A stretch of DNA of 64,000 bases. Origin: Minisyncoccota bacterium. Its GTDB lineage: Bacteria > Patescibacteriota > Minisyncoccia > Phycocordibacterales > UBA918. Below are positions 40 to 45,703 of the stretch, one piece after another (position 1 is the stretch's first letter; every line of letters begins with the position of its first letter). The notes under the pieces were generated by a model, which searched no databases, was not told the DNA's origin, and was given only the letters and a program-made list of their open reading frames with translations. Location of the stretch: the NCBI GenBank assembly GCA_041389025.1, contig JAWKSP010000002.1:184079-248078 (forward strand), given 5' to 3'. Both the position numbers and the translations under genes were made by a program.

Positions 40-59
40 GCTGCCGGACAGGGACTCGT
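40..59. repeat. 20-nt exact copy of the 3' end of tRNA-Gln (tgctgccggacagggactcg)
   Basis: Identical to 232..251. A second fragment at 372..390 (accattagacgatccggca) duplicates the tRNA 5' end at 286..304. Confidence 0.5.
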
Positions 60-233
60 CCTGACGGTCACCAAGCTATTTTGTTTCCTTTCAGTCACAA
101 AAGTAGCTGGTGCCGCGGGACACGGCTCGCTCATAAATATCGCTCCGCCGTTCGAGTCCTGACGCAAGTGACGAAGGTCACTTGCTTCCGGCAGCACGAG
201 AAAAAGCGCACATAGGCGCTTTTAACTCTCGTG

Positions 234-304
234 CTGCCGGACAGGGACTCGAACCCCGATAGACGGTACCAGAAACCGTAGTCCTACCATTAGACGATCC
301 GGCA
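234..304 (-). tRNA. tRNA-Gln (anticodon CTG)
   Basis: Reverse complement folds as a cloverleaf: acceptor TGCCGGA/TCCGGCA (U1:A72 as in bacterial tRNA-Gln), U8, anticodon stem ACGGT/ACCGT with loop TTCTGGT, T-arm CGGGG-TTCGAGT-CCCTG. A hairpin plus T-run (aaaagcgc..gcgcttttt) follows on the minus strand. Confidence 0.6.
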
Positions 305-3720: not shown

Positions 3721-4161
3721 TTAGGAAGAGGCCTTTTCTGCTGCTTTTGATACCTTATCGGCAGTCTTCTTAACTTTTTTAGCAGCCTTTTTTACTGCTT
3801 TTTTTGTTTTAGTCGCAACTTTTTTAGGCGCAGCTGTCTTAGCAATCTCGAGCCAATGTTCTTTCATTTCTCTTTTAAAGGCAGCCATATCAGCCTTAGT
3901 AGCATTTTGGATATTAGAATATGAAGTACTAACAGTATCGATTAGTTTATCGTATTCCTTTTTAGTCATATCTTGGGTGTTTTCTAAAGATTCCAAAATA
4001 TCTGCTTTAGCCTTAAACATCCAGCTTTTTACCGCCTTGCGATTTTTAGCTGCTTTTTTACTACCATACATGAAGTAAGCACCGACTGCCGCAGCTACAG
4101 CACTTAAGCCAACTGCTACCCCTAAATTATTTACCTTATTATCTTTTTTATTTGTTGCCAT
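3721..4161 (-). CDS. hypothetical protein, N-terminal TM helix, Lys-rich tail (YtxH-like?)
   Basis: ORF with GLSAVAAAVGAYFMYG hydrophobic segment and a KK-rich C-terminus. Confidence 0.3.
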   Translation of the reverse strand: MATNKKDNKVNNLGVAVGLSAVAAAVGAYFMYGSKKAAKNRKAVKSWMFKAKADILESLENTQDMTKKEYDKLIDTVSTSYSNIQNATKADMAAFKREMKEHWLEIAKTAAPKKVATKTKKAVKKAAKKVKKTADKVSKAAEKASS

Positions 4162-41568: not shown

Positions 41569-42264
41569 TCACCTCCAGTCTATAAAACTTATAGTTGGAG
41601 GAATATTCAGTGGTGAATTGTATTTTTTCATTCCTGTAGTCAACTCAAGTTTGATATCACAACTAGGAAAATTTGTTTCTCTTACCCAGTCACACAAGGA
41701 ATTAAATAATCTTTTTCCTTCCTCTATTCCATTTATCCCTTGAACAGTAAAAACTGCATGTTCTTCCAAACCATTTACCGTTGACTTCTTTCTAGCAAGG
41801 AAATATATGCCATTTTCTACAAAAAAATCTACAATCTCATCTGATATGGAATTTCTAGGTACTGAAATATGAATATCCCAGACTTTATTCTCCTCATTAA
41901 GCTTTGACCTAAGTTTCTGAAACGGAAAATATTTTAACTTGAAAATTCTACTCGGAGTTATATGTACATCAGAAAGAATACACTCGCTATGCCAATACCC
42001 AACTGAATTTGTCTCAAGCATGATACCATCAACCAAAGATTCTAATCTCCTCAACTCAATGATGTCGTCAACCTTCTTTGATACATGAACAGCAATCAGA
42101 GGACAAGCGGTATAAAACCTTTGCGTATCTTCATTCATGATAATTCTCCTATCTACTAAATTATCATCAACAAAACCGATTTTTTTTAAAGCTGTACCAA
42201 CCACACTTCCATCGTCATTTTCTGTCGCAACATGCATATCATAAGTATACTTTTTATTACTCAT
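41569..42264 (-). CDS. hypothetical protein
   Basis: 231 aa, divergent from an HTH regulator gene. Confidence 0.35.
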   Translation of the reverse strand: MSNKKYTYDMHVATENDDGSVVGTALKKIGFVDDNLVDRRIIMNEDTQRFYTACPLIAVHVSKKVDDIIELRRLESLVDGIMLETNSVGYWHSECILSDVHITPSRIFKLKYFPFQKLRSKLNEENKVWDIHISVPRNSISDEIVDFFVENGIYFLARKKSTVNGLEEHAVFTVQGINGIEEGKRLFNSLCDWVRETNFPSCDIKLELTTGMKKYNSPLNIPPTISFIDWR

Positions 42265-42391
42265 ATCATCCTCACTTTTATAAAATTACTTCCACTCATG
42301 ACTTTACAAAACCATTATAGTTTTGTACAATCTTTCACATAATTTGTGATGAAAATCATAGAAAACATTAGGCATAACTAAAAATATTCAC

Positions 42392-43117
42392 ATGAAAATA
42401 CTTGAAGAAATAGGACTAACAAAAACAGAAGCTAGGATATATGAGCACTTGCTACGTCTGGGTGAGTCTCCTGTAAGTTCCCTGCAAAAATCCTTAGATA
42501 CCCATCCGCAAATTATATACAGGACGATCGATAATCTGACCAAGAAAGATTTAGTAACAGTCGTCAATAAAAAGAACAAAAAATTTGTTATTCCAGAACA
42601 CCCCAAAAAATTGGAAGAGCTAGAAAAAGAAAAACTTAACAAACTTAAAAACAGTCTTCCTGAACTGATAGATATCATGAACAAAACAGAAAGTACGTTA
42701 GTAAAAACTAGCGTAGGTTTTGAAGCTATCCGGTCGTTTCGTAGAATGGCCATCAATGAACTCAAAAGGAGTGAGACTTTATATATTATTGGTGGATCGG
42801 GAGACAGGTTTTATGATGTAATGGGAGATGATTATGAAGAGATTGAAAACAAACGAATCAAAAAGAAAATAAATAAAAAACTTTTAGCTTTCTCTCAAGA
42901 GAAAGAAAAGTTTAATCAAGACACAAACAGACTACATACGGACTTTCGATATTTTTCTTCCAATCACCCCACTCTGTCCAGCATTAATATCTTTAATGAC
43001 CATGTTGGAATCATAATATGGTCAACCGAACCAATTCTAATCCACATAAACAGTCATGAGGTTGCCAATTCCTACAAGCACTACTTTAATGAACTGTGGC
43101 TAAACAGCACAAACTAG
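42392..43117 (+). CDS. TrmB-like HTH transcriptional regulator
   Basis: N-terminal GLTKTEARIYEHLLRLGESPVSSLQKSL winged helix. Confidence 0.45.
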   Translation: MKILEEIGLTKTEARIYEHLLRLGESPVSSLQKSLDTHPQIIYRTIDNLTKKDLVTVVNKKNKKFVIPEHPKKLEELEKEKLNKLKNSLPELIDIMNKTESTLVKTSVGFEAIRSFRRMAINELKRSETLYIIGGSGDRFYDVMGDDYEEIENKRIKKKINKKLLAFSQEKEKFNQDTNRLHTDFRYFSSNHPTLSSINIFNDHVGIIIWSTEPILIHINSHEVANSYKHYFNELWLNSTN

Positions 43118-43200
43118 ACATAACGTTTGCATGAAAAAACCTTTCAGGTCAACACTTTCCTTACCACCACAATAATGCTAAAGTATTGGTTACTTTAATA

Positions 43201-43272
43201 GTCCTGGTGGCGAAGTGGTAACGCTGCGGTCTGCAAAACCGCCATGCGCGGGTTCGATTCCCGCCCAGGACT
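43201..43272 (+). tRNA. tRNA-Cys (anticodon GCA)
   Basis: Acceptor GTCCTGG/CCAGGAC, anticodon loop CTGCAAA, T-arm GCGGGTTCGATTCCCGC. Confidence 0.75.
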
Positions 43273-43322
43273 CACGGAGGAAAATTACACTTTCAGTGTA
43301 ATTTTCCTCCGTGAGTCCTGGG
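43264..43322. repeat. 27-bp perfect inverted repeat whose left arm is the 3' end of tRNA-Cys
   Basis: cccaggactcacggaggaaaattacac-tttca-gtgtaattttcctccgtgagtcctggg. Confidence 0.6.
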
Positions 43323-43329
43323 AGCAAAG

Positions 43330-43480
43330 TATTTTAATACTTTGCGTCGGGAATCGAAAAGCGAACGATCTGAGTCGCTTCTTCCTAAAGCGACGAAGCA
43401 GTGAGCTGTGGTCAAGCGAGTGAAATATTTTCATGTTTTAGAACATGAAAATATCCACGAGAGTGACCGATTCCTTTCCA
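43330..43480. repeat. diverged repeat R1 (related to 43808..43945), ending in a tRNA-3'-end-like segment
   Basis: Shared blocks cgggaatcgaaaagcg / cgggaattgaaaagcg, gagtcgct / gagtcgact, gtgaccgattcc / gtgaccaattcc; internal hairpins. Confidence 0.4.
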
Positions 43481-43675
43481 GCAAAACTCGAAACACTAAG
43501 TAACAACATACTCGACAGTATATTCGTTATCTATTGTAAGATTTAGTGGAGTTATTACATACCAACGTGGTGTAATCAGTAGATCACACTGTCCTAGAGA
43601 CATTCCTATAGGGACTTAAAGAAAGTCCCGTGACTAATTATATTATTTAGAGTAGGATTCAAAAAAAATATTAAT

Positions 43676-43765
43676 GCCGAGGTGGTGGAATCGGTAGACA
43701 CGAAGGACTTAAAATCCTTTGCCTATTTATACGGCGTGCGGGTTCAATTCCCGCCCTCGGCACCA
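43676..43765 (+). tRNA. tRNA-Leu (anticodon TAA)
   Basis: Acceptor GCCGAGG/CCTCGGC, anticodon loop CTTAAAA, long variable arm, encoded CCA. Confidence 0.75.
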
Positions 43766-43807
43766 AATTAAAAAGTAACAACTTCTTGTTGTTGCTTTTT
43801 AATTTAC

Positions 43808-43945
43808 GTAGTCAGAATGACGGGAATTGAAAAGCGTAATTTTAATTCGAATACTTGGAGTATTAAAATAGCTGGGGTCGAGGAGCTTAGTACTTTTTGG
43901 AGTCGACTAAGACGAACAAAAATACTTAGCGAGGTGACCAATTCC
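43808..43945. repeat. diverged repeat R2, ending in ccaattcccgcccttagcac (near-copy of the tRNA-Leu-TAA 3' end)
   Basis: The 3' end matches 43745..43763 (caattcccgccctcggcac) at about 17/19 positions. Confidence 0.45.
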
Positions 43946-44371
43946 CGCCCTTAGCACAAAAAAACAACGAGTCTACTTTGGTTGGACTCGTTGTTTGTAT
44001 TCTAAAGCTAGAATTTAGTGTAATGATATAATCTTTTCCGACAATACTCGCAGTCACTGATGGTAAGTTTGGTAGACCAATCCAAACCATAGTCACCGTC
44101 TGATTTATATAATCCAAGAAAACATAAAGCTCTTCGAGAAAGTAAAATAGACAACATACCCCGTATCTTCAAAAATAAGTTAGTTAATATTCCTTTAATA
44201 TTCATCAGATATGTTCCTCCATAAAGATAAAAACAACATTATACCCAGTAAACAATATAAAACTTTTTACTTTGAAGGACAACCTCATCGCCGTTAAATT
44301 TAAATCATCTAAATAAACAATTTTACGGCTTGTTTTTGACTACAAACTATTGTAAACTCATCGACACACAC

Positions 44372-44444
44372 CCACCCTTAGCTCAGTTGGTAGAGCAGCT
44401 CCCTCTTAAGGAGACGGTCCAAGGTTCGAGCCCTTGAGGGTGGA
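44372..44444 (+). tRNA. tRNA-Lys (anticodon CTT)
   Basis: Acceptor CCACCCT/AGGGTGG, D-arm GCTCAGTTGGTAGAGC, anticodon loop CTCTTAA, T-arm CAAGGTTCGAGCCCTTG. Confidence 0.6.
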
Positions 44445-44556
44445 CGCGAGTAAAACAAACTTCTCACTTTAAAAAGACAAGGAAGTTTGTTTTAATTTCG
44501 CGTCCGAGGCGTAACGATGTATTCTGCTCTACCTAGGCAGAAAACAGTAGAAGTGG

Positions 44557-45267
44557 CTATGAAAAATCACTTATATTATTCTCAATCTTTTCTACCACCT
44601 CAACCAAAGTCTCTAATAGATATAAATCTACAATTTTCTCGTAACCTTCTCGGTTAAAATGAATTCCATCACTTATCTTGTTATTTTTATCCAGAAAAAC
44701 TTCTGAAGTCATAAAAGGTAAAAGTAATATTTTGTGTTTTTTAGACAACTCCTCATACATAGAGTTAAACTTTTCTACATAACCAAGACCGGAAGTAATC
44801 GGTGCTTTCATTTGTAGCAATATCACCACTGGTGCATTTTCACCAGCTTTTAATGACAAAATAGTTTGGTCTAAGTTGTTATAAGTTTGGTCAAGATCAA
44901 TTGACCGAAGCGCGTCATTGCCACCGATACCCAACAATACAATATTCGGCTCTTGAGCTTTAATATCATCAACTCGAGCTAATACCTCACCAGCCACGTC
45001 CCCGTTTACTCCCTCGTTTACAACCAATACATTTAAGCCCAGACCTTTGAGTTTCGTCTCCAATATTGACGGGTAACTATCTTCTTTTGATAACCCATAG
45101 CCAGCGGTCAGACTATCGCCCAGAGCAATTATTTTTATTCCTTCACTTGGATTGGGTACCACGTGTTCAATGTCAGAAATCATAAACCCTGAATCATCCT
45201 TTAAAATAAAAAAGCTAACTATAAATAAAAATAGTGAAGCTAATATTATTAAGTGACTTTTCTTCAT
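44557..45267 (-). CDS. SGNH/GDSL-family hydrolase (lipase/esterase)
   Basis: Signal or TM N-terminus; GDSL block IIALGDSLTAGYG; GGNDAL block. Confidence 0.75.
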   Translation of the reverse strand: MKKSHLIILASLFLFIVSFFILKDDSGFMISDIEHVVPNPSEGIKIIALGDSLTAGYGLSKEDSYPSILETKLKGLGLNVLVVNEGVNGDVAGEVLARVDDIKAQEPNIVLLGIGGNDALRSIDLDQTYNNLDQTILSLKAGENAPVVILLQMKAPITSGLGYVEKFNSMYEELSKKHKILLLPFMTSEVFLDKNNKISDGIHFNREGYEKIVDLYLLETLVEVVEKIENNISDFS

Positions 45268-45347: not shown

Positions 45348-45376
45348 TTAGACAAATATCCTTTTTATGCTATACT
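45348..45376 (+). promoter_or_regulatory. sigma-70-like promoter TTAGAC-17-TATACT upstream of tRNA-Leu-TAG
   Basis: Hexamers and spacing read from the sequence. Confidence 0.4.
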
Positions 45377-45394: not shown

Positions 45395-45476
45395 GCGCGG
45401 GTGGCGAAATTGGTAGACGCGTTAGTCTTAGGAACTAATAGAGCAATCTGTGGAGGTTCAAGTCCTCTCCCGCGCA
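45395..45476 (+). tRNA. tRNA-Leu (anticodon TAG)
   Basis: Acceptor GCGCGGG/CCCGCGC, anticodon loop CTTAGGA, long variable arm. Confidence 0.75.
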
Positions 45477-45703
45477 CTAGTATAAAAATCAGCTTGACGA
45501 TTAGTCGGGCGATTTTTGTTAGTGCGCGGGAAGAAAGCAAACTACTTTGCTTTCGTGAGGGCTTGAAGACCGGAACGATGCCGCAGGCAAGTGAGGTGGG
45601 GTCGAGAAAATTTTGCTTTGCAAAATTATTCGTGACCAAGTCCTCTCCCGCGCACTAATATAAGAAATCAGTTCGACGAATAATCGGGTTTTTAATTTTA
45701 CTT
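45461..45703. repeat. direct repeat of the tRNA-Leu-TAG 3' end plus about 40 nt of downstream sequence (copy 1 at 45461..45517, copy 2 at 45639..45703)
   Basis: agtcctctcccgcgcacta(g/a)tataa(a/g)aatcag(c/t)t(t/c)gacga(t/a)ta(g/a)tcggg...ttttt, about 85% identity; a second acceptor-like gcgcggg lies at about 45524. Confidence 0.55.

Follow-up and report, generated by a model that had tools for sequence, protein, structure and literature searches.

Structured units that begin at C56 in the T-loop lie behind tRNA and tmRNA genes of Patescibacteria

The window, by which we mean the whole 64-kb stretch of DNA analysed and within which all tRNA, ORF, and unit positions are counted, yields eight tRNAs and nothing else at the Rfam gathering threshold. 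Four of the eight are followed by one copy each of a structured unit, designated R1 to R4 (Table 1). A sequence-only reading of this DNA had drawn attention to the interval 43323-43960 as ORF-free sequence around a tRNA-Leu with two diverged repeats. No ORF of at least 60 amino acids lies in the interval, the tRNA is found within it, and the repeats correspond to R1 and R2. R3 and R4 lie beyond that interval.

Table 1. Positions, within the window, of the four units, their parts, and the tRNAs that they follow
Feature	Position	Strand	Basis and remarks
tRNA-Gln(CTG) and R4 unit	40-304	-	tRNA 233-304; ARAGORN; covariance model
R4	48-163	-	follows tRNA-Gln
R4 parts	terminator; X'acc 187-196; H0 164-186; GU + X'T 153-163	-	sequence
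R4 variant core AACGGCGGAG...	59-152	-	sequence
Xr of R4	40-58	-	19/19 identical to tRNA-Gln
tRNA-Cys(GCA)	43201-43273	+	ARAGORN; Rfam tRNA 65.7 bits; X (positions 56-74) = 43255-43273, source of the sequence copied in R1
Near-perfect palindromic hairpin, starting within tRNA-Cys acceptor 3' strand	43264-43322	+	sequence; 3' arm = X'acc, 43311-43322
Hairpin H0 of R1 (agcaaagtattttaatactttgc)	43323-43345	+	sequence; optional conserved hairpin, X'acc to X'T
R1	43346-43478	+	follows tRNA-Cys
GU + X'T of R1	43346-43356	+	5' strand of helix P1; X'T = cgggaatcg, 43348-43356
R1 core: AAAAGCG, hairpin A, GAGCUGUGG, hairpin B, GAGAGUGAC	43357-43467	+	fold; covariance model; orthologues
Xr of R1	43468-43486	+	decayed direct copy of tRNA-Cys 3' end from C56, 12/19
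tRNA-Leu(TAA)	43676-43765	+	ARAGORN; Rfam tRNA model; X = 43745-43763
Trailer hairpin 3' of tRNA-Leu(TAA): A-run, stem, U-run	43765-43806	+	sequence; terminator-like
R2	43819-43949	+	follows tRNA-Leu(TAA)
GA + X'T of R2	43819-43829	+	X'T = cgggaattg, 43821-43829
R2 core: AAAAGCG, hairpin A, AGCUGGGG, hairpin B (GGUCGAGGAGCUUAGUA...UACUUAGCGAGGUGAC)	43830-43938	+	fold; covariance model
Xr of R2	43939-43957	+	direct copy of tRNA-Leu(TAA) 3' end from C56, 17/19
Terminator-like hairpin behind R2	43958-43997	+	sequence
Promoter-like site upstream of tRNA-Leu(TAG)	45349-45376		
tRNA-Leu(TAG)	45395-45477	+	ARAGORN; Rfam tRNA model; X = 45459-45477
R3 unit, left part	45478-45554	+	terminator hairpin + U-run 45492-45520; X'acc 45522-45533; H0 45534-45554
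R3	45555-45647	+	follows tRNA-Leu(TAG)
R3 GU + X'T + core, hairpin B in short form	45555-45636	+	covariance model; sequence; X'T = gagggcttg, 45557-45565
Xr of R3 and second, diverged trailer/terminator copy	45637-45695	+	Xr 45637-45655, 19/19

All units follow one design, in which X stands for the 3' part of the tRNA from C56. Counted from C56, a unit opens with the 3' end of the working tRNA and a hairpin or terminator. Next come, in order, X'T (9 to 11 nt, antisense to tRNA positions 56-65), a joiner rich in A, a three-way junction that is conserved and laid out as AAAA, hairpin A, hairpin B, and ...GUGAC, and finally Xr, which copies the tRNA 3' end directly, exactly from C56 to the discriminator. 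The unit boundaries are U55/C56 in the tRNA and GUGAC/C56 at Xr. X'T is an exact 9-nt complement of positions 56-64 of tRNA-Cys in R1 and of tRNA-Leu(TAA) in R2, and its pairing with X in R3 includes one G.U. The sequence-only reading does not mention the antisense segments of R1 and R2.

Two further parts, X'acc and H0, are optional. X'acc, an antisense counterpart of the tRNA 3' end, is part of the tRNA trailer palindrome; at tRNA-Cys that palindrome has no U-run after it and draws only generic hairpin (miRNA-like) scores from Rfam. X'acc is also present at the tRNA-Lys of the relative L070 (loci carry L numbers), where no unit follows, and H0-like hairpins (about GCAAGCAAAnnnnUUUGCUUGC) occur at the equivalent position in many loci; the R2 lineage has neither part. 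The idea of a self-contained tRNA-like stem, in which the acceptor part of Xr would be kept only together with X'acc, was rejected, as the two show no association (Fisher p = 1).

At R1 to R4 only tRNA positions 56-73 are copied. The R1 core is a divergent copy that has lost the tip motif of hairpin B and has orthologues in L070 and L003, and the R1 tail derives from the tRNA-Cys just upstream, not from tRNA-Leu. The reported copying of the tRNA-Leu 3' end in the R2 tail is borne out, the two X copies differing at two positions, 43758/43759 in the tRNA versus 43952/43953 in Xr, and elsewhere in the 64 kb every site falls short of 15/19 to this 3' end. Of the two small hairpins listed in that reading, agtattttaatact is part of the R1 H0 and aatacttggagtatt is the tip of R2 hairpin A. 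The R3 duplication begins exactly at C56 and reaches about 35 nt into the terminator, and its Xr is unchanged although the adjoining duplicated trailer has diverged.

R1 and R2 share one three-way junction fold (z = -5.4 and -3.3, respectively). A covariance model built from 37 copies and searched with filters off matches R2 (83.2 bits, E = 4e-26), R3 (70.1 bits, E = 1e-21), R1 (55.8 bits, E = 8e-17), and R4 (37.1 bits, E = 2e-10). The homology of the two repeats is clear because of this common fold and the family to which they belong; their direct MAFFT alignment, a check that the sequence-only reading had named, is poor. In alignment A3, which is itself fitted to the model, 94.6% of cells are paired versus 76.5% after shuffling, with none of 500 shuffles as high and slid controls at 25-41%. 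The covariation counts likewise come from alignments that are partly model-fitted: 20 of 23 pairs vary on both sides, and 13 of the 23 are compensatory in the MAFFT alignment. The fold lies on the tRNA sense strand, with one conserved G.U pair and 37 G.U versus 22 A.C oppositions. Conserved secondary structure with compensatory changes thus characterizes the units, and the earlier suggestion of an unrecognised structured noncoding RNA fits in so far as this is a conserved covarying fold without an Rfam family.

With DNA parameters, the unit from C56 to GUGAC is predicted to fold into a closed rod (z = -9.6) whose two ends meet at the junction. In the minimum-free-energy fold of tRNA-Leu(TAG) together with R3 (-121.7 kcal/mol, z = -9.2), the tRNA's own 3' part pairs with X' and its 5' acceptor strand with Xr, so that the unit forms a compact insertion separating position 55 from position 56.

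No Rfam 15 family matches the unit at the gathering threshold. A scan of 43100-44600 at E values up to 10 returned no family for R1 or R2 but only generic hairpins and a permuted tmRNA below threshold (43738-43884; 15.3 bits, E = 1.6, threshold 47), the latter running from the tRNA-Leu 3' end through the first half of R2. Neither canonical nor class II copies hit a family at relaxed thresholds, and the ribozyme and intron models, Intron_gpI included, have no match on the units. ARAGORN and the Rfam tRNA model are silent on R1 to R4, and R1 and R2 have neither a D arm nor an anticodon arm, contrary to the proposal of tRNA pseudogenes. The motif gaaagtcccg, in which a hint of RNase P had been seen, gave no such match at E up to 10 and simply forms one side of a local hairpin (43610-43629).

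Several other identities were rejected. The units are not group I introns, as Intron_gpI does not match them and the upstream tRNAs are complete, although in L001 the tRNA that units follow contains such an intron (Rfam, 60 bits). A 62-bit AdoCbl match in L079 lies 5.5 kb from the unit, and the resemblance of coordinates is coincidental. For a hammerhead or k-turn junction, the CUGANGA and box C/D consensus sequences are absent by eye and Rfam is silent. TIGR-Tas guide arrays (PMC12045711) consist of 36-nt dual-spacer repeats and are hence unlike the units. In contrast to a MITE, the only inverted repeat is X/X', which is target-derived and different at every tRNA, and the duplication is 19-55 nt long.

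When 185,579 species genomes were scanned for the core motif, about 50 loci were recovered, each in a Patescibacteria species genome, and R1 to R4 are members of a large Patescibacteria-specific family of units, each starting at C56 in the T-loop. The family is previously undescribed; no description of the element was found in the literature searched. Nearly all units lie 40-100 nt downstream of a tRNA gene (at least 14 identities) or a tmRNA gene (L034, L037, L054, L060), on the same strand, and their size is uniform (about 170-210 nt; median X-to-Xr spacing, 194 nt). X'T pairs with X at 9-11 of 11 positions in 41 loci, and its match to the working tRNA persists in copies with a degraded Xr. 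About half of the copies have a decayed Xr acceptor part, and Xr is 19/19 identical in R3, R4, L016, L032, L048, L053, L057, L072, and L079. The earlier observation is therefore confirmed and was understated: the layout of tRNA, insert, and partial 3'-end copy is genuine at four window tRNAs and in dozens of other genomes. Its interpretation is partly supported. To call the intervening DNA too short for an intact element presumes an element that carries genes, whereas the unit of roughly 190 nt is itself the conserved entity.

Compared with L070, tRNA-Leu plus R2 is 88.9% identical over 280 nt and tRNA-Cys plus R1 is 78.9% identical, versus about 70% in neighbouring coding DNA. R2 (about 85-89%) is more conserved than its coding neighbours and is thus no decaying scar, tRNA pseudogene, or RNase P RNA, nor is this the neutral decay that had been entertained. 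Core conservation spans many candidate phyla. A copy typically has as its nearest relative the one that follows the same tRNA in a different species; of 73 nearest neighbours, only five are in the same genome, three of them tandem duplicates, and this comparison gives no sign of recent within-genome spread. Occupancy varies at orthologous sites of the Cys-Leu-Lys-Leu tRNA cluster, as the sequence-only reading had thought worth looking for. Units are found at Cys, Leu-taa, and Leu-tag in the window, at Cys and Leu-taa in L070, at Cys only in L014, and at all four tRNAs, with two copies at Cys, in L044. These occupied and empty sites belong to relatives more distant than strain level: no strain-level pair with identical flanks was found, and an exact-protein lookup gave at most a 1.6-kb contig. 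Of 80 metagenome loci with an identical tRNA-Leu(TAG) 3' end, most have no unit, and none has flanks in common with the window. The copies in the window carry no cargo, are old and inherited vertically, and remain under purifying selection.

Elsewhere in the family, unlike units stand in tandem arrays with swapped order (b-ORF246-a in L061; a-c-cargo-b in L040), small cargo genes lie between X copies (L031, L059, L061, L040), and some tRNA-matched copies are 1-4 kb from that tRNA, behind cargo genes. A 150-aa cargo protein family (56% identity) is common to L059 and L040, where it resides in X-bounded cassettes that match tRNA-Asp and tRNA-Gly, respectively; the cargo ORFs have no Pfam matches. 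Several unrelated core classes with the X'T-core-Xr design occur behind one tRNA-Leu(TAG), and a 4.2-kb island is integrated at its tRNA in L055.

Most units have a terminator-like hairpin with a U-run ahead of them and no promoter-like site of their own, and no such site was found for the four window copies. No terminator separates tRNA from unit in L070, L044, and window R1, so these units are probably transcribed within tRNA operons, judging from the sequence. R1 of L070 sits between tRNA-Cys and tRNA-Leu, only 5 nt before the next tRNA, and the units of L044 directly abut tRNA. Clustering of all ORFs of 50 loci, together with Pfam scans, revealed only housekeeping synteny and unannotated cargo, and no recurrent unit-linked family. 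No recombinase or other element-specific protein recurs in the 8-kb loci, where the neighbours are housekeeping genes, and Pfam scans of the window neighbours and cargo ORFs contain no recombinase. An autonomous version of the unit was not found. There are no copies in IMG/VR, whose one match is a chance match inside a coding region, and no unit match among INPHARED phages or PLSDB plasmids.

Integron attC sites and the (+)-strand attP of CTX phage are recombination sites used in folded, single-stranded form. The units resemble them in that inverted repeats on one strand (X' and X) fold into a stem recreating the duplex target, and in being strand-specific and cassette-like, with arrays that may hold non-coding cassettes. 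Unlike these sites, they show no IntI/XerCD link and no integron integrase in the loci, and have no R''/R' (GTTRRRY / RYYYAAC) or dif-like consensus; the stem is each tRNA's own sequence and differs for every tRNA. Moreover, attC conserves structure only, whereas the loop domain of the unit is highly conserved in sequence. IS200/IS605 elements combine single-strand logic and structured ends with internal-guide base pairing for target and end recognition, all of which the units share, and protein-less copies could be mobilised in trans. However, the unit guide measures 9-19 nt versus 4 nt, the units have a long flanking repeat (at least 19 nt) where IS200/IS605 make none, and no tnpA or tnpB was seen in the general ORF clustering of the unit loci. 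The mascRNA-type tRNA mimics are small RNAs linked to tRNAs and freed by the enzymes of tRNA processing. Plant tRNA-snoRNA dicistrons, as cited in PMC12045711, release small RNAs in the same way. Like these, the units would be structured RNAs sharing a transcript with a tRNA directly ahead of or next to them, and many members have an acceptor-like stem; there is no sequence or model similarity, and the antisense match and duplicated 3' end have no counterpart.

Integrative elements target tRNA and tmRNA genes, with the T-loop as one sublocation (Williams 2002, as cited in PMC9897764), and tycheposons form arrays at tRNA genes (bioRxiv 10.1101/2020.12.28.424599). The units likewise have tRNA and tmRNA targets, a replacement 3' end that leaves the upstream tRNA intact, a displaced partial tRNA copy as boundary, tandem arrays with cargo at one tRNA, and occupancy that varies among relatives. 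In contrast to integrative elements, they are only about 190 nt long, have no integrase within or near them, and possess a covarying three-way junction and an antisense target copy, which no described integrative element does. Group I introns, protein-less and common in Patescibacteria tRNA genes (PMC13011429), are also structured, tied to particular tRNA genes, patchy, mostly vertical, and equipped with a guide that complements tRNA sequence; L001 combines the two in a single tRNA gene. The introns interrupt the anticodon loop, whereas the units are placed at 55/56 behind a complete, uninterrupted tRNA.

We tentatively propose, as the best reading but a plausible rather than a probable one, that the unit serves as recombination module for an integrative cassette that has no protein, targets the T-loop, and acts in folded single-stranded form. 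Such a miniature element, encoding no protein of its own, would occupy the T-loop site of a tRNA or tmRNA gene and leave the gene intact. In the single-stranded sense strand (lagging-strand template DNA, or RNA), X' would pair with either X copy and would thereby place both unit boundaries side by side at the base of the conserved junction, the geometry needed for strand exchange. Exchange at this point would excise or insert the unit, and the catalyst may be an enzyme encoded elsewhere or, conceivably, the core itself. The logic would be comparable to that of integron attC, the folded CTX phage attP, and the IS200/IS605 pairing of guide with cleavage site. The direct repeat of the tRNA 3' end from C56, a classical integration signature, argues for an integrative module, as do a target range known for integrative elements, varied occupancy, arrays of unlike units, X-bounded cargo, interchangeable core classes, the covarying sense-strand fold, the rod-like unit, the terminator ahead, and the lack of an own promoter. 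Against it stand the absence of a recurring recombinase, an autonomous version, phage or plasmid copies, and recent spread, with copies clustering by tRNA across species. The conservation across candidate phyla, in R2 above that of the flanking genes, fits a host function at least equally well, some copies are probably transcribed in tRNA operons, and the model leaves unexplained how X' and Xr come to match each new tRNA. It is unlikely that the unit is a base-pair-programmed mobile module, protein-less in cis, that resides in the tRNA or tmRNA T-loop with its own replacement 3' exon and a catalytic or guide junction. The junction would then be a catalytic or guide nucleic acid mediating strand exchange at position 55/56, by which a single-stranded circle of roughly 190 nt would be excised or integrated, or by which the T-loop insert would be removed at the RNA level.

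As the main rival reading, the units may instead be functional noncoding RNAs behind tRNA and tmRNA genes, produced as read-through or operon transcripts and freed by RNase P and RNase Z, a possibility that we consider real but somewhat unlikely. The body of such an RNA, often partly tRNA-like (acceptor-like stem, H0, extended T-like helix), would display the three-way junction and could act in tRNA 3'-half biology, e.g., in maturation, quality control, or the binding of a tRNA-recognising protein. Strong covariation with invariant junction nucleotides, the constant position downstream on the tRNA strand, conservation exceeding that of flanking coding DNA, inheritance with each tRNA across species, and an X'T that stays complementary to the working tRNA despite Xr decay are consistent with this, and so are the terminator-free R1 of L070, the abutting units of L044, and the precedent of the plant dicistronic genes. 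However, an exact C56 duplication boundary reaching into the terminator is nothing that an RNA gene needs, and the U-run hairpin ahead of most copies, the missing promoter-like sites in the window, the distant copies behind cargo genes, the interchangeability of unlike core classes behind one tRNA, and the dispensability of copies at orthologous tRNAs all speak against an RNA gene.

An intron-like T-loop insertion with a spare 3' exon, in which X' of a read-through transcript would capture the proximal tRNA 3' part and Xr would complete the tRNA, while the core as ribozyme or nuclease-ligase substrate would remove a 178-nt insert, possibly as a circle, appears improbable. The joint fold of tRNA-Leu(TAG) and R3, the meeting of the unit ends at the junction, the intact R3 Xr beside a diverged trailer, and the protein-less self-splicing introns in tRNA genes of this group and of L001 itself point toward it; yet a thermodynamic fold is uninformative on co-transcriptional folding, no ribozyme or intron model matches, Xr has often lost its acceptor part, and the upstream tRNA is always complete, so that splicing is not required. 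Direct repeats of tRNA 3' ends are also the usual mark (PMC9897764) of integrase-carrying prophages and islands, and islands do occur at some of these tRNAs, as in L055. Ordinary decayed attL/attR scars with a deleted interior are nevertheless very improbable: the interior is homologous, covarying, uniform in size, better conserved than coding DNA, and retained in about 50 species genomes at no fewer than 14 tRNA identities, an outcome on which independent deletions would not converge. It is scarcely credible that the units are tRNA pseudogenes, RNase P RNA, permuted tmRNA, another known RNA family, or chance similarities. Their 3' tails do resemble T-arm and acceptor sequences, and the permuted tmRNA match touches R2, but the copied 3' end is the sole tRNA-like part, the tRNA, RNase P, and tmRNA models are all non-significant on R1 and R2, and covariance-model E values of 1e-16 to 1e-26 together with the family context exclude chance.

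Units give rise to partial tRNA copies and long palindromes, by which tRNA annotation, island prediction, and assembly in these genomes can be led astray. Although Patescibacteria (the Candidate Phyla Radiation) have genomes that are tiny and streamlined, most sampled tRNA genes in some of them precede a unit of about 200 nt. If the units are RNAs, they would represent a new and abundant class of RNA linked to tRNA 3' halves within a major lineage of bacteria. If they are recombination modules, cassettes would be captured at tRNA genes without a linked integrase, by pairing to the tRNA 3' half, and the principle would be programmable. Should the junction itself prove catalytic or guiding, the units would make up an element class of a new kind, dependent on a ribozyme or guide, and would open a new way for small cassettes to build up at tRNA genes in reduced Patescibacteria genomes.

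Three plus-strand tRNA genes lie within positions 43201-44445 of the window, and no open reading frame of at least 60 amino acids was found within 43323-43960, the interval that carries two copies of a folded element, R1 behind tRNA-Cys and R2 behind tRNA-Leu(TAA). Both fold into a common architecture (z = -5.4 for R1 and -3.3 for R2) made up of a closing helix P1 (GGGAAUCG/CGAUUCC in R1; CGGGAAUUG/CAAUUCCCG in R2, with one compensatory C:G to U:A change), an AAAA joiner, hairpin A closed by (A)GC/GCU, and hairpin B closed by GGUC/GACC. Within the window, the CGGGAATYGAAAAGCG and GTGACCRATTCC motifs occur at the R1 and R2 sites only. The sequence-only reading had proposed that the R2 tail copies the tRNA-Leu 3′ end, which was confirmed (17/19 identical). 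It had overlooked that the tail of R1 duplicates the 3′ terminus of tRNA-Cys, the tRNA upstream of R1 (12/19), and that the 5′ strand of P1 in R1 and R2 is an exact 9-nt antisense to positions 56 to 64 of the respective tRNA. The gaaagtccc motif, once likened to the P4 strand of RNase P, forms one side of a simple hairpin; it sits in the ~190 nt that separate R1 from tRNA-Leu, a spacer missing from the Paceibacterota locus L070.

Coordinates of tRNA genes, element copies and associated features in the window and in compared loci (L numbers)
Feature	Sequence	Position	Strand	Remark
tRNA-Cys(GCA)	window	43201-43273	+	
tRNA-Leu(TAA)	window	43676-43765	+	
tRNA-Lys(CTT)	window	44372-44445	+	
R1	window	43346-43478	+	55.8 bits
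R2	window	43819-43949	+	83.2 bits
R3	window	45555-45647	+	70.1 bits; behind tRNA-Leu(TAG)
R4	window	48-163	-	37.1 bits; behind tRNA-Gln(CTG)
Tail copy of R2	window	43939-43957		
Triloop hairpin of R2	window	43885-43905		
Spacer hairpin	window	43610-43629		agggacttaaagaaagtccc
Insert	window	41569-43117		between rbfA and tRNA-Cys
tRNA-Lys palindromic trailer	window	44443-44506		
tRNA-Lys palindromic trailer	L070	7100-7165		
150-aa cargo protein	L059	4470-4922	-	HERIH motif; X-bounded cassette
150-aa cargo protein	L040	2135-2587	-	HERIH motif; X-bounded cassette
Class II units	L106, L136, L152, L140, L130, L101, L145, L116, L086			3′ of tRNA-Leu(TAG)
Group I intron	L001	386-698	+	Rfam, 60 bits
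Duplicated tRNA-Phe	L045	~3860-4020		element orientation (reverse complement of stored locus)
AdoCbl riboswitch	L079	1107-1252	-	62 bits

The fold of the element is genuine, as judged from covariation among its copies. RNAalifold on a MAFFT alignment of 37 copies found compensatory changes in 13 of 23 pairs, and a covariance model built from this alignment gave 85 matches from 51 sources. In an alignment of 73 matches, both sides vary in 20 of the 23 pairs and standard pairs fill 94.6% of cells versus 76.5% after shuffling (0/500 shuffles as high), figures somewhat inflated by fitting to the model, although the unfitted MAFFT/RNAalifold result agrees in direction. Sliding the partners by 1 to 3 columns reduced pairing to 25 to 41%. 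One G.U pair is kept in 65 of the 73 copies, and elsewhere 37 G.U versus 22 A.C oppositions were counted, which together indicate that the folding strand is the tRNA sense strand. Rfam 15 contains no family matching the window copies, the canonical copies, or the other core classes. Most apical loops are C(GNA)G triloops (GCGAAGC, GCGGAGC, and GCGUAGC, e.g., in L022, L057, L031, and R2). This sequence type forms very stable DNA mini-hairpins, and such tips may be a clue that the element takes a single-stranded DNA form.

Searching the window with this model, filters off, returned four copies (R1 to R4), not two. In R3 and R4, which lie outside 43323-43960, the displaced copy (Xr) of the tRNA 3′ end (X, from C56) is identical to its own tRNA at 19/19 positions; the R4 core is a variant (AACGGCGGAG...). 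The duplication in R3 starts exactly at C56 and runs on through the trailer and terminator, its tRNA portion identical and its trailer diverged, so Xr is either constrained or kept homogeneous with X. R1 is the most eroded window copy, with a remodeled hairpin B tip in addition to its degenerate Xr. No unit (the stretch from X to Xr) was found behind tRNA-Leu(CAA), tRNA-Trp, tRNA-Tyr, or tRNA-Lys of the window.

A scan for the junction motifs only (AAAAGCG..GCTGNGGTCNAG..GTGACC) across 185,579 species, one genome each, identified 81 loci, ~50 of them in Patescibacteria (Paceibacterota, Saccharibacteria, and Kaiser-, Yonath-, Nomura-, Zambryskii-, Vogel-, Lloyd-, Moranii-, and Yanofskybacteria). 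Loci of other phyla are GC rich, have no flanking features, and look like chance matches; the element is a family confined to Patescibacteria. In nearly all patescibacterial loci the motif lies 40 to 100 nt 3′ of a tRNA or tmRNA on the same strand; these upstream genes cover 14 or more tRNA identities and, in L034, L037, L054, and L060, tmRNA. The 19 to 20 nt past GUGAC directly repeat the segment of the upstream tRNA that begins at C56 and ends with the discriminator, and the repeat is identical at 19/19 positions in L016, L032, L048, L053, L057, L072, and L079. Between tRNA and core, a terminator-like hairpin comes first. In many loci it is followed by X'acc, an antisense of the 3′ acceptor strand, or H0, a conserved hairpin, or both in this order; GU and X'T, the antisense to tRNA positions ~56 to 65, come last. 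The distance from X to Xr varies little (median, 194 nt; interquartile range, 178 to 210).

In all 41 loci tested, X'T fits the working tRNA no worse than it fits Xr, typically matching the tRNA at 9 to 11 of 11 positions, while its ungapped match to Xr falls to 4 to 6 of 11 in L014, L036, L047, L049, L054, and L065; in L036 and L065 the cause is a hairpin inserted into Xr, not decay. The presence of X'acc showed no association with an intact acceptor part of Xr (Fisher p = 1). X'acc is part of the tRNA trailer palindrome and is also present without a unit, e.g., behind tRNA-Lys in L070. The tRNA genes of this lineage carry long palindromic trailers, the 3′ arm of which is antisense to the final 3 to 10 nt of the tRNA even where the element is absent, as at tRNA-Lys in the window and L070; this unusual arrangement would be a competitor of the acceptor stem. 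From tRNA C56 to GUGAC, the sequence adopts a closed, rod-like fold (z = -9.6) in which X pairs with X', the terminator forms the cap, H0 a side branch, and the core hairpins the foot. In the minimum free energy fold of tRNA-Leu(TAG) with R3 (z = -9.2), X' is the partner of the proximal 3′ part, and Xr that of the 5′ acceptor strand of the tRNA. Because X' can pair with either copy of X, both unit boundaries can meet at one junction.

L070 has its gene order in common with the window, and coding DNA is ~70% identical, versus 88.9% over 280 nt for tRNA-Leu with R2 and 78.9% over 318 nt for tRNA-Cys with R1, which is at odds with the decaying scar suggested from the sequence alone. Same-tRNA copies of different species have derived characters in common and are mutual nearest relatives; GCUGUGGUCAAG, for instance, is common to tRNA-Cys copies (window, L003, and L070) and tRNA-Pro copies (L042 and L073). 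The nearest neighbor lies within the same genome for only 5 of 73 copies, 3 of which are tandem duplicates. Conservation above that of coding DNA, together with this kinship, indicates that the units are old residents of tRNA loci under purifying selection. The conservation, covarying fold, Rfam, and family evidence contradicts three other readings, namely, decayed conventional scars, tRNA pseudogenes, and known RNA families.

Several features are signs of recombinational mobility, among them patchy occupancy. In the orthologous Cys-Leu-Lys-Leu tRNA cluster, three of four positions are occupied in the window, two in L070, one in L014, and all four in L044, which has two units behind tRNA-Cys. 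Most of 80 metagenome loci with an identical tRNA-Leu(TAG) 3′ end have no unit, and 13 of their 187 tRNAs/tmRNAs passed a strict test for the X..X'T..Xr design. Some occupied tRNA-Leu(TAG) loci carry quite different cores, such as class II (X'T, AAAA, a long hairpin, UGUACYGA, a 5-bp hairpin with a GUA triloop, and Xr), for which the loci scanned (L106, L140, L086, L116, and L152) gave no Rfam match. Unlike units are stacked in tandem in L001, L011, L015, L040, L044, and L077, and two unit types occur in reversed order behind tRNA-Gly(TCC) (b-ORF246-a in L061; a-c-cargo-b in L040). In L031, L059, L061, and L040, small genes are flanked by an X copy on one side and by the next terminator-X'-core on the other; one 150-aa cargo family, with no Pfam match, is found in tRNA-Asp-matched (L059) and tRNA-Gly-matched (L040) cassettes at 56% identity. 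The window also holds 1.6 kb of extra DNA relative to L070, L003, and L014, encoding a TrmB-like regulator and a 231-aa protein without a Pfam match; a TrmB-like gene is also cargo of the L040 array (34% identity over the helix-turn-helix).

Other features were seen in the compared loci. The group I intron of L001 lies within a tRNA gene that ARAGORN overlooked, with two units behind it, and this tRNA agrees with the intron-bearing tRNA-Asn/Asp genes of PMC13011429. In L045, a second copy of tRNA-Phe that extends from the anticodon arm through the 3′ terminus lies ~70 nt behind the gene, and the element comes only after it; with hardly any insert, this copy represents an att-like duplication of its own, located at the anticodon loop. 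The riboswitch of L079 has no relation to the element.

Several observations weigh against a simple mobile element. ORF clustering across 50 loci found no recombinase or other unit-linked protein, only housekeeping synteny (e.g., translation GTPases, represented by IF-2 in the window, RbfA, ValRS, SmpB, and FtsH); the units of the window neighbor IF-2, RbfA, the TrmB-like regulator, a GDSL lipase, a HIT protein, and a trehalase. Cargo proteins gave no Pfam matches except the one TrmB-like regulator, and the element motif was not found in IMG/VR, INPHARED, or PLSDB. R1 of L070 is placed tightly between tRNA-Cys and tRNA-Leu without a terminator, units adjoin the tRNA directly in L044, and promoter-like sites of the window occur only upstream of tRNA-Cys and tRNA-Leu(TAG). 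From this layout, at least some units are probably parts of tRNA-operon transcripts. Support for a functional RNA that is released by processing of tRNA transcripts comes close to that for an integrative module, although this reading is on balance somewhat unlikely; an "intron with a spare exon" in the T-loop, or a ribozyme version of it, is an improbable, minority but exciting possibility. Common to all these readings is one main gap, namely, how X' and Xr get matched to each tRNA.

The duplication boundary, target set, arrays, cargo, and patchy occupancy are as expected from site-specific T-loop integration at tRNA/tmRNA genes, for which PMC9897764 and the tycheposon arrays (10.1101/2020.12.28.424599) provide background. 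No description of the element was found in the full-text literature searched, nor is there an Rfam family; the closest paper on patescibacterial tRNA genes (PMC13011429) concerns group I introns that sit in the anticodon loop. Neither the covarying sense-strand fold nor the antisense guide is known from any described integrative element. They may recall attC, CTX attP, and IS200/IS605 ends, recombination sites that are used as folded single strands. Because the integration signature is combined with this fold and guide, we tentatively favor a protein-less integrative module, whose folded form would align both of its boundaries for strand exchange.
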